Shown one piece after another: positions 9,001 to 12,000 of a DNA stretch of 64,000 nucleotides. Position numbers: made by a program. Each line of letters starts with the position of its first letter. Position 1 is the stretch's first letter. The DNA is taken from NCBI RefSeq assembly GCF_056712565.1, contig NZ_CM160072.1. One strand, given 5' to 3'.

Positions 9001-12000
9001 TCATCCTGGCCGATCAGGTTCACCATAAACTGAATCATCTTGAAGAAAAACTCCACCGTGTTGACCAGGTTCAGCGGGCGCAGTTACATCTTGAGCAGAT
9101 ATTCTCATGGTGGAGCGCCGGGCGATATGCGTCATTTTCCCCTGCCGGACGTTGTTATGTGGCGCTTGAAGAGCTTCGCTGGGGCGCGTTTGGTGATGTG
9201 ATACGTCAGGGCGAAACAGGCCAGGTTAACCAGCTACTGGATATTCTCAGACATAAAGCATTAACGCAGATGGCACAGGAGAGTGGCGGTAGTGCAACCG
9301 TGCGTCTGAACACTCTGGACTGGCTTGGTGGTCAGGGCCGGGAGCAGGCAGATAACGAGTGGCATGACGCGATTAACTGGCTGGGAGACTGGTGCAGTGA
9401 AGAGCAGCATCCGGTGATCTGGTCAACCACGCAGGCTGCAGAACACTTACCGGTTCGCATGCCTCGCCTCTGCTCTGCAGAACGCCTCTCTGAAAGTATG
9501 GTCGATGAAATATTTCAGAAGGGGGCTGCATGAGTACAGAAATGAAAACGGGGCTGGTGCTGTCCGGTGGCGGGGCGGTGGGCGCTTATCAGGCGGGAGT
9601 GGTTAAGGCACTGGCAGAGTGTGGTACACAGATCAGCATGGTTTCAGGGGCCAGCATTGGCGCATTCAATGGTGCCATTATCGCGGCCTCTCCCGATCTG
9701 TCAGAAGCTGCCGTACGCCTGGAGGCGCTCTGGGATCATCTGGGGAATAATCAGGTGCTGTCGGTAAACCGATTGGTTTACTTTTCATTGCTGAAAAAAT
9801 TGTTCCAGGCAATGAACCTCTGCCAGATCCCCGGACGTGCAGGAGCACTGCTTACGACGCTTCTTCGCCATATATCGATACTCAACGGGTTTGACAATCT
9901 GATGGCTCAGCCGTTGTTGTCAGATGAGCCCCTGACAGCGCTGTTGGATCATTATCTTGATACTGATGCTCTGGCAGACGGGCTACCGCTGTATGTGTCG
10001 CTGTACCCCACAGAAGGGGGCATGCAGGATATTATTGACTGCATTCGTGCTGAACTGGGTGCCGGAACCACGAAAAACGCCGTTTTTCAGCATATCCAGA
10101 GCCTGCCCCGCGGACAGCAGAAAGAGGCTCTGCTTGCGTCAGCCGCGCTGCCCCTGCTGTTCCGTCCCCGTGAGGTTCAGGGGACAATGTTCGGTGATGG
10201 TGGTATGGGAGGATGGCGAAATATGCAGGGAAATACCCCTGTGACGCCTCTGGTCGATGCCGGATGCAATATGGTGATTGTGACGCATCTGAGTGACGGT
10301 TCTTTATGGGATCGCCAGGCTTTTCCGGACACCACAATCCTTGAGATCCGTCCCCGGAAAAGGCTGAAATATGCAGGTGATGGTGACAACAGCGGCGGTC
10401 TGCTCAGTTTCACGTTGGCACATACCGACGCCTGGCGTCAGCAGGGCTATGAAGACACGATGCTGACGATGGAGCATATCCGGAAACCGCTGGCAGCACG
10501 TCAGGTACTGTCCCGGTCAGAAACGGTGTTGCAGAAAAGTCTGGAGATAACGGAAGAGGCAGATTTGGCACTGAGAAACGCGATGGCCCGGATTAAATAA
10601 AGACGCCCCAAAGAAACGCCACCGCCTGTGGTGGTGTTTTTCCTGGCTGGTGTTATTGAAAATATTTTCAGATATATATTACCTGAGAGAAAGTTTTACC
10701 CCTCACCTGTCAATTCACTCACTGGAAATTTAATTATGCAATTACCTGTAAAGTTATTAATGAGCCTTATATCTCTGGTCAGCGTTATTGCACGTGCCGG
10801 GAAATATAAAAATTACATCCGGGATGAAATAAAATACTGGCGATATACATCATACAAGGGGGGGGAATTTCCGGAAGGTTTCACTGATGAGAAATTTTCC
10901 AGCGCCATTTACAACGGAAGAATATTTACAATGAAACGTTTACATACCCTGATGTTATTTCTGGCGGTTCTGTTTACTGGCTTTAACGTGGAAGCAGCGA
11001 GCGTGAAACAAGCGCTCAGCTGCGACCCAAACGCCCGGGCTGAACAACCTGGAGCGTGTCCAACAACGTACGAGTTGTACGAAGGTGACGCTGCCTACAA
11101 AGCTGCGCTTGACAAAGCATTAAAACCGGTCGGACTGAGCGGCATGTTCGGTAAAGGCGGGTATATGGATGGCCCTGGCGGAAACGTAACGCCAGTAACC
11201 ATTAACGGTACAGTCTGGCTCCAGGGCGACGGTTGCAAAGCCAATACCTGCGGCTGGGACTTTATCGTAACACTCTATAACCCAAAAACCCATGAAGTCG
11301 TTGGCTACCGCTACTTTGGTTTAGATGACCCGGCCTACCTGGTTTGGTTCGGCGAAATTGGCGTGCATGAATTCGCGTATCTGGTGAAAAACTACGTAGC
11401 TGCGGTTAACTAATTTAAGGAGTCTGTCATGAAAACTTTTATCAAAACTTTACTCGTTGCTGTAACTATTCTGTTCTCTGTCTTCGCTACGGCGAAACAA
11501 GTAAAACTGCCAAACAACATCAAATACGTTAATACTACAGAGGCGTTTTCCTGTACTGAGATTGACGGTATGAATTGCCAGACGAAGAATCCGTTTAACT
11601 ATAAAGATAACAGCTATGTTTTCGTGCTTGAACGTGGTGGTGCCTGGTGTTACGACTACACTGTCTCGGTACTTAACCTGAAAACCGGGAAAGCACAGAT
11701 GCTCGAATACAAAGACAACCAGCTGTGCTCAGGTAGCAACAAACCGTTCTTCGAAATCAAAAATGGCGTACCGACGGTAGGAGTCATCGACACATCCGGA
11801 AAACCTGTCGTTGTGGCTCTGGACAAACTTAAAACCTGAGGAGTAAACCATGCGTTTCTCTGCACATTATTAATATCAAAGGTAAATACAGCCCCAGCCA
11901 TTGTTGCCGGAAAGCCGCTTAATGCGTGGCTCGCCAGTGAAAGGCTTCTCAGACAATAAACCTCATTCATTTCACCCGTCAGGCCGCGTCTTCTCCGGGA

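Follow-up and report, generated by a model that had tools for sequence, protein, structure and literature searches.

A two-gene cassette of Escherichia coli islands and jumbo phages encodes a divergent Ivy-superfamily protein, a putative inhibitor of muralytic enzymes

The DNA analysed here, called the window in the following, is a stretch of 64,000 nucleotides from contig NZ_CM160072.1 of the RefSeq assembly GCF_056712565.1. The region studied is 100% identical to the chromosome of E. coli Nissle 1917, and is part of a CP4-44-type island adjoining yeeA/sbmC. The subject of this report is a pair of open reading frames (ORFs) at 10931-11839, ORF1 and ORF2, which lie between a gene for a patatin-like phospholipase and a DUF932 gene. 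ORF1 is, judging from profile comparisons, a divergent relative of the lysozyme inhibitor Ivy, and the two ORFs together appear to be a cassette that is found both in genomic islands of E. coli and in jumbo phages. The pair and the sequence directly in front of it hold the following features.

10736-10930, plus strand: in-frame remnant of 65 codons, the 5' end of a third secreted-protein gene (from alignment, stops and substitutions)
10931-11413, plus strand: ORF1, 160-residue precursor, divergent Ivy-superfamily protein, predicted to be periplasmic (profile, fold and selection evidence)
11234-11254, plus strand: codons of the ORF1 loop C-K-A-N-T-C-G (residues 102-108), counterpart of the inhibitory loop CKPHDCG of Ivy, which a disulfide closes
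11417-11422, plus strand: AAGGAG, Shine-Dalgarno sequence of ORF2, 6 nt 5' of its ATG (from the sequence)
11429-11839, plus strand: ORF2, 136-residue precursor, secreted, predicted all-beta, member of phrog_8968 (profile match)

ORF1 runs from an ATG at 10931 to a TAA at 11411-11413, and ORF2 from an ATG at 11429 to a TGA at 11837-11839. The gap of 15 bp between them, which the initial annotation had already given correctly, contains the AAGGAG. The island alleles and the phage copy L017 retain this sequence, which is AAGGAA in the phage copy L015. Both proteins were claimed to carry signal peptides, and this also holds. The N-termini are MKR-LHTLMLFLAVLFTGF-NVEA/AS in ORF1 and MKTFIK-TLLVAVTILFSVF-ATA/KQ in ORF2 (the slash marks the predicted cleavage), and both are predicted to be Sec-type signal peptides, with a positive n-region, a hydrophobic core of 12-15 residues and a small-x-small cleavage motif; a lipobox is found in neither. 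The best 12-residue Kyte-Doolittle mean is 2.5 for ORF1 and 2.9 for ORF2, as compared to 2.2 for Ivy of K-12. In ORF1 the signal peptide covers approximately residues 1-22 (nt 10931-10996), which gives a mature protein of about 138 residues, and its features, including the V-E-A motif, are kept across alleles. ORF1 has four cysteines, C31, C43, C102 and C107, all invariant in its close family, and ORF2 also has four, C42, C50, C74 and C100. The ratio of non-synonymous to synonymous substitution rates (dN/dS) was computed pairwise for seven alleles of each ORF, taken from E. coli islands and phage-like replicons. It was 0.10-0.22 for ORF1 and 0.09-0.22 for ORF2, with one pair at 0.41, while the synonymous divergence ranged up to saturation in both. 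Such low ratios imply that both ORFs are real genes under purifying selection.

The NCBI model of ORF1 (WP_001362823.1) is longer, 225 residues, and begins at an ATG at 10736. The extension, 10736-10930, aligns end to end with residues 1-63 of a 180-residue ORF with a signal peptide, located at 8098-8640 of the E. coli island L008. There, as an example of other islands, the gene for this 180-residue protein, which has no match in Pfam, PHROG or PADLOC, is placed between the patatin gene and the Ivy-like gene. The extension is thus the start of a separate gene, and a deletion in the window has fused that 5' end in frame to ORF1. It is interrupted by an in-frame stop in L012/L013, and in L008, L015 and L017 a stop is situated 6-8 codons 5' of the conserved MKRL start. 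When islands are compared, the extension has 0 synonymous versus 5-6 non-synonymous differences, whereas ORF1, in the same comparisons, shows 21-29 synonymous and 14-20 non-synonymous ones. Furthermore, diverged homologues of ORF1 are annotated at 160-161 residues. The alignment of the remnant, the in-frame stops, the substitution pattern and the homologue lengths together make 10931, the start in the initial annotation, preferable to 10736, and the 65 codons are probably not a part of the functional protein. An internal stop in the L005 copy was also considered as a test of the start codon, and was uninformative since it falls in the mature part; it was the stop in L012/L013 that decided.

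The CxxxxCG loop of ORF1 had been noted for its likeness to the active loop of Ivy, and profile alignment bears this out. As reference we used an alignment of 25 bona fide Ivy proteins of the E. coli type, and the K-12 Ivy sequence was taken from NC_000913.3. With hhalign, the close family of ORF1 aligned to the Ivy alignment with 92.3% probability and an E-value of 5e-7, and with the distant relatives added these values were 98.7% and 4e-16. In both runs CKANTCG registers on CKPHDCG, over about 89 aligned columns, and the segment C102-KANT-C107-G-WDF-I-V-T-L-Y-NPK aligns with CKPHDCGSQRIAVMWSEK of K-12 Ivy. The identity between ORF1 and Ivy is only about 20-28%. A word-index search with ORF1 found relatives in E. 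coli/Shigella only, the lowest identity being 61%, and an exhaustive search with the ORF1 profile among 1.84 billion representatives gave 58 matches, about 30 of them full-length at 19-32% identity. Both cysteine pairs are common to these distant relatives, and their loops have the form C[E/K/Q]-x-H-[N/D]-C. Pfam Ivy is matched by 27 of 33 aligned sequences (29 of the 33 are distant relatives), with a best E-value of 7.6e-12, and the nearest of the distant relatives, from Pectobacterium, Salmonella salamae and Chromobacteriaceae, are named "Ivy family c-type lysozyme inhibitor" by NCBI. It was also observed that some of the distant Ivy-like relatives in Pectobacterium and Salmonella salamae (P0215, P0216, P0251) are about 315 residues long with a conserved, cysteine-containing C-terminal domain; some of these long forms have the UniRef label "prophage protein".

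The predicted fold was compared as well. The core of the ORF1 model is strand-strand-loop-strand-strand with flanking helices, and when this model, itself poor, was compared by Foldseek to 350,542 PDB chains the six best matches were all Ivy (1gpq, 4ps6, 1uuz, 1xs0), with TM scores of 0.34-0.46. A PDB search with the profile of the ORF1 family ranked a mannanase (E 0.015) ahead of Ivy (E 1.4), and a PDB sequence search with ORF1 alone gave IMP-dehydrogenase-type matches only, which we regard as spurious. No similarity was seen to YfjS, YfjT and YpjK, secreted proteins of K-12 with a similar island position (best BLASTP E-value 0.15 in a four-sequence database). C102 and C107 are at least 90% conserved also in the wider set, and among the alleles of ORF1 the loop is CKA[N/H]AC, CKANTC or CKS[N/D]AC. 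On this evidence we place ORF1 within the Ivy superfamily as a divergent member; by the curated thresholds it falls outside. What stands of the Ivy-like label is therefore the homology, seen in hhalign, in the Pfam Ivy matches of the relatives and in the Foldseek ranking; the curated cut-offs and the loop histidine, discussed below, do not support it.

For ORF2 the initial annotation recognised no family, and here it has to be revised. The protein matches phrog_8968 over nearly its full length (E 9.1e-44, residues 1-129 of 136 on profile positions 1-131 of 135), and tblastn found homologues of 34-37% identity in 38 jumbo phages, including SPN3US and phiEaH2. The SPN3US homologue, ACQ60_gp084 (YP_009153476.1), matches the ORF2 profile at E 2e-17. 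Sequence searches in Pfam, NCBIfam, PADLOC and PDB gave no match to ORF2. The lysozyme inhibitors MliC/PliC, PliI and PliG are small periplasmic beta-rich proteins, as ORF2 is predicted to be, and ORF2 was tried as one of these and rejected, as it has neither sequence nor fold similarity to the known inhibitor families. A neighbouring phage gene, phrog_5248, is weakly similar to ORF2, which suggests a family of secreted paralogues with four cysteines. We propose ORF2 to be another periplasmic, beta-rich member, independent of ORF1, of the gene array in jumbo phages that is described next.

A homologue of ORF1 with 61% identity, P0014, is encoded on the metagenomic scaffold L015 of 64 kb, which also carries a baseplate gene (phrog_3216, E 9e-114) and an SbcC/SMC-like gene. 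The order on this scaffold is two YfjT-family genes, phrog_9424, the Ivy-like gene, the ORF2-like gene, phrog_5248, two more genes and SMC, and six of the eight array genes before SMC have a signal peptide. A near-identical array, in which one YfjT-family gene was seen as compared to two, is present in L017, a circular replicon of 222 kb from Enterobacter ludwigii. This record, NZ_CP134650.1, was deposited as a "plasmid", is typed as non-mobilizable, encodes nearly all hypothetical proteins and shows synteny to the SPN3US-like jumbo phages; behind the plasmid label there is probably a jumbo-phage genome. Viral contigs from IMG/VR also have the array; they are 107-225 kb long, and three of them measure 221-225 kb. 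A tblastn search with ORF1 against deposited phage genomes (INPHARED) gave nothing, and the phage copies are found only in IMG/VR, the metagenomic scaffold and the "plasmid" record. SPN3US itself shares the order of the array, with an unrelated protein of 163 residues in the slot of the Ivy-like gene. This protein was tested as a hidden relative of Ivy and rejected. On the secreted proteins of SPN3US the literature offered nothing of use.

In the E. coli island L008 a frameshifted remnant of phrog_9424 lies directly 5' of the Ivy-like gene, with 81% identity over the last 54 residues. The common gene order and this remnant imply that the cassette of E. coli and the array of the jumbo phages have a common ancestry as one block, whichever the direction of transfer between phages and islands. 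The intact wider array has been seen only in phages. When the phages are compared with each other, the Ivy-like gene is the most diverged of the array, 64% identical versus 75-97% for its neighbours. The YfjT-family genes (PF27224) of the array, at 5598-6551 in L015 and 7523-7984 in L017, encode secreted proteins, and yfjT of K-12 is situated in the CP4-57 island (L002 13149-13616); it seems that secreted cargo has entered CP4-type islands from jumbo-phage arrays on more than one occasion. Another observation on the scaffold is a short intergenic sequence, L015 1-68, which recurs in 18 jumbo-phage genomes of Erwinia and Salmonella with one or two copies per genome and 84-88% identity among the matches listed. 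A promoter or regulatory motif common to these phages is one possibility.

The jumbo-phage replicon L017 also encodes, at 15821-16507 and about 7 kb 3' of the Ivy-like gene, an SLT-domain lytic transglycosylase with the signal peptide MFRIFFLLLVTLFAFNAYA/SK, which is a candidate target of the Ivy-like protein. It is conceivable that the Ivy-like protein keeps in check a lytic transglycosylase belonging to its own element or to the host and in this way prevents premature wall damage, and that the island copies are a leftover acting on host enzymes. Since jumbo phages export such a protein, and since Ivy proteins inhibit the lytic transglycosylase MltB as well as c-type lysozyme (as cited in PMC10746161), self-control is a live explanation. 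It fits less well that E. coli islands have no SLT gene beside the pair, yet the pair is under purifying selection there, and that in SPN3US-like phages the array lacks an Ivy-like gene. We consider it unlikely.

ORF1 was found in 2,332 and ORF2 in 2,365 of 5,426 complete E. coli genomes (about 43%), and intact copies in about 1,900-2,300 of them. The local order in the window is a TonB-dependent receptor (minus strand), a truncated small GTPase, a dynamin-family GTPase, a YjcZ/RdcB-family protein, the patatin-like phospholipase, ORF1, ORF2 and DUF932, and 3' of DUF932 follow antirestriction, YeeS/RadC, YeeT, CbeA/CbtA and YeeW. The features next to the pair are these.

6247-8631, plus strand: dynamin-family GTPase (context; ORF and profile matches)
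8628-9533, plus strand: YjcZ/RdcB-family protein (context; ORF and profile matches)
9530-10600, plus strand: patatin-like phospholipase (context; ORF and profile matches)
10620-10636, plus strand: terminator-like hairpin and T-run, stem of 7 pairs with 5 GC pairs, tail TTTTTCC (consensus scan only)
11981-12010, plus strand: strong terminator-like hairpin of 13 pairs, then TTTTTCATTT, between ORF2 and the DUF932 gene (consensus scan)
12060-12881, plus strand: DUF932 gene, start of the CP4-type island backbone with antirestriction, RadC/YeeS, YeeT and CbeA/CbtA (context)

The initial annotation had suggested, as a speculation, that the pair is linked to the dynamin-patatin operon. In physical terms this is correct, as the block GTPase-dynamin-YjcZ-patatin-ORF1-ORF2-DUF932 is kept in E. 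coli islands at several chromosomal sites, and it is so even where the pair is about 80% identical. It could then be argued that all five genes make up one system for membrane remodelling or defence, with the pair as its periplasmic components. The first hairpin, however, sits 20 bp past the patatin stop, between the operon and the pair, and this hairpin and a gap of 330 bp precede ORF1, whereas the three upstream genes overlap at their start and stop codons. From island to island the flanks have 92-99% identity, as compared to 76-92% for ORF1 and 72-95% for ORF2, and the borders of this divergence are sharp, at the start of ORF1 and the stop of ORF2. In the flanks read around the pair in jumbo phages no dynamin-patatin operon was seen, and some islands with an intact triad of dynamin, YjcZ and patatin genes lack ORF2 or have another gene inserted. 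The hairpins, the divergence pattern, the occurrence in phages and the separate losses all argue that the pair is an exchangeable cargo cassette and not a component of the upstream operon, and a five-gene system is in our opinion highly improbable.

The two ORFs had also been described as coupled, which is true in so far as their adjacency is maintained in phages and islands at 61-75% identity. ORF2 is, on the other hand, precisely missing from the L008-type island, where ORF1 is present, and SPN3US has a homologue of ORF2 without ORF1. ORF1 and ORF2 are not strictly dependent on each other.

Allelic replacement with sharp borders and high divergence within conserved flanks, as the cassette shows it, is common at immunity loci, and both proteins are small and predicted to be periplasmic. 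ORF1, ORF2 or both could for this reason be orphan immunity proteins that neutralise periplasmic muramidase toxins of competitors, such as Tge-type effectors of the type VI secretion system or pesticin-like bacteriocins. None of the contexts read has a toxin gene beside the pair, the overall dN/dS is low and the cassette probably originates in a phage gene array, and this makes an immunity function very unlikely.

Some observations on the neighbours can be added. Start/stop overlaps at 8628-8631 and 9530-9533 join the dynamin, YjcZ/RdcB and patatin genes, and this triad moves as one in the CP4-type islands, where it is found at more than one chromosomal position. In PADLOC its dynamin weakly matches LeoBC (E 4e-6) and its patatin weakly matches phospholipase effectors, and the triad may be an undescribed membrane-acting system. 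The YeeP/YfjP-like small GTPase 5' of the dynamin gene (window 5556-6029) is truncated to an ORF of 157 residues, and a version of 290 residues exists in other islands. Further away, at about 18520-20277 of the window (from L001 19921-21678), a ClbS/DfsB-family gene is located beside the transposase of ISEc53, an ISL3-family element, inserted between sbmC and dacD. ISEc12, of the IS21 family, splits ORF1 after nucleotide 133 in some E. coli genomes (L019 3087-6350), and in these the matches cover only positions 134-909 of the pair.

A protein that is almost certainly of the ORF1 family, in its annotated form of 225/227 residues, has been reported before. In a 2024 preprint (bioRxiv 10.1101/2024.04.20.590424), knock-down of E. 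coli O121 "Hypo_04657" by CRISPR interference (CRISPRi) raised the efficiency of plating of phage T7. Hypo_04657 has the loop CKANTC, and its AlphaFold (AF2) model was superposed on Ivy 1XS0 and called Ivy-like, with an extra helical part read as a transmembrane domain (10.1101/2024.04.20.590424). From the gene model presented above, this helical part is the remnant of another gene, and it is probably not translated as part of the protein. The likeness to Ivy and the phage phenotype are thus already in the preprint. What the present analysis adds is the corrected gene model, the assignment of ORF2 to a phage family, the provenance of the pair from jumbo phages, its behaviour as a cassette and its independence from the dynamin-patatin operon; the preprint does not deal with phage origin, partner gene or allelic diversity.

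Taken together, the interpretation that we on balance favour is that ORF1 is a periplasmic inhibitor of the Ivy superfamily directed at a muralytic enzyme, plausibly one from a phage. ORF1 and ORF2 would form a small, separately transcribed cassette for two Sec-exported periplasmic proteins, common to the CP4-type islands of E. coli and to the secreted-protein array of the SPN3US-like jumbo phages of about 220 kb. By analogy with Ivy, a disulfide between C102 and C107 would close the CKANTC loop, and the loop would enter the active-site cleft of a periplasmic lysozyme-like muramidase or lytic transglycosylase and block the enzyme. In this way ORF1 might blunt the muralytic enzymes that phages use at entry or lysis, and the cassette might act as a superinfection-exclusion or anti-phage moron, like Spackle of phage T4, with a different build. 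The residence in phages and islands, the high allelic turnover and the reported T7 knock-down phenotype are the reasons for favouring an anti-phage role. When T7 enters the cell, the wall-degrading activity in the periplasm comes from the transglycosylase domain of gp16, and gp3.5 has amidase activity. On these grounds gp16 would be a more natural target in T7 than the one proposed in the preprint. A more specific version is possible and can be put forward only tentatively, namely that the cassette is a superinfection-exclusion module of jumbo phages, domesticated by the islands of E. coli, in which ORF1 blocks the wall-degrading enzyme with which incoming phages pass the peptidoglycan (in T7 the transglycosylase domain of the ejected core protein), ORF2 blocks a second periplasmic step, and the replacement of one diverged allele by another, exchanges between Asn, His and Asp in the centre of the loop included, reflects an arms race with the muralytic enzymes of phages.

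The same homology to Ivy would also agree with the classical role, in which ORF1 shields the peptidoglycan from animal c-type lysozyme in gut or tissues and is an accessory to colonisation or virulence, with no part in phage infection. The genomes carrying the cassette include many human, animal and Shiga toxin-producing E. coli (STEC) isolates, and the loop histidine is kept in some alleles (CKAHAC). E. coli already has a chromosomal ivy, though, and the other home of the gene is jumbo phages, for which host lysozyme is a less obvious pressure. The histidine is also missing from the allele of the window, and the sole reported phenotype concerns phage T7. We therefore find the classical role improbable.

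It could also be that the two genes are relics, a horizontally acquired phage fragment that is decaying and has no current function in E. coli. Insertion sequences, premature stops and deletion fusions are common in the pair, and neighbouring genes of the cassette are already pseudogenes. Both genes still have a dN/dS of 0.1-0.2 between island alleles, the intact copies are numerous as given above, and a knock-down phenotype has been reported, so we give this explanation very little credence.

Several points speak against a muralytic-enzyme inhibitor with a role in phage infection. The match of ORF1 to Pfam Ivy (PF08816), its sole Pfam match, is below the cut-off, 13.8 bits as compared to 21 (E 0.067), and NF007443, one of four weak NCBIfam matches, gives 13.2 bits with a cut-off of 180. 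The AlphaFold model of ORF1, made from a shallow alignment, is of poor quality (pLDDT 60, pTM 0.58), and the individual Foldseek E-values of the Ivy matches are just 0.07-0.25. The loop histidine, H88 in the CKPHDC of Ivy, is invariant in the E. coli-type alignment and is Asn in the window allele, and activity on c-type lysozyme may therefore be lost or retargeted. Hypo_04657 was assigned to the ORF1 family from the common CKANTC loop alone. As CRISPRi is polar, ORF2 or downstream genes could be the cause of the T7 phenotype. PADLOC has no model, those of Eleos/LeoA-LeoBC included, that matches ORF1 or ORF2, and LeoBC is weakly matched by the upstream dynamin only. No sigma-70-like promoter was found on the plus strand from the patatin terminator to 10931, the only match on this strand being at 11562-11590, inside ORF2. 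Finally, ORF1 has a premature stop in the L005 copy and deletion fusions to its neighbours in some genomes, and this frequent inactivation, together with the ISEc12 insertions, suggests that it is dispensable in many lineages.

Inhibitors of the Ivy type are usually discussed as a protection from animal lysozyme, or as a means by which the cell restrains its own lytic transglycosylases. A diverged branch residing on jumbo phages and islands points to a third use, interference with the muralytic enzymes of phages, and the T7 phenotype fits such a use. If this is true, an anti-phage role would be new for an inhibitor of the Ivy type, and a family of jumbo-phage secreted proteins would have its first function. 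The results also give a handle on a whole block of such proteins, and indicate that the CP4-type "cryptic prophage" islands draw cargo from these phages. As for annotation, the "hypothetical protein" of 225/227 residues is corrected to an Ivy-like precursor of 160 residues that follows a gene remnant.

The known systems to which ORF1 can be compared are first of all the Ivy proteins themselves, YkfE of E. coli and Ivyp1/Ivyp2 of P. aeruginosa (PF08816; PDB 1GPQ, 1XS0, 1UUZ and 4PS6). ORF1 shares with them a homologous core and a Sec signal peptide, and its C-x4-C-G loop is modelled between two beta-strands of the central sheet, with helices before and after. It differs in an additional N-terminal segment with the second cysteine pair, C31 and C43, which is common to the distant relatives and absent from the E. 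coli-type Ivy alignment. The loop is CKANTC, with His or Asp in place of Asn in other alleles, as compared to CKPHDC in Ivy, and the gene is located on genomic islands and jumbo phages, whereas Ivy is encoded at the ivy locus of the core genome. In SPN3US the gene order around the ORF2 homologue is the same as around the pair in the other phages, and the Ivy slot is what differs. The functional analogue that we propose is Spackle (gp61.3) of T4, a phage-encoded periplasmic protein with a signal peptide that inhibits the tail lysozyme gp5 and causes superinfection exclusion (PMC7677548). The two share neither sequence nor fold. Spackle is a bundle of alpha-helices that acts allosterically, while an inhibitor of the Ivy type inserts a loop of its beta-sheet (PMC7677548).

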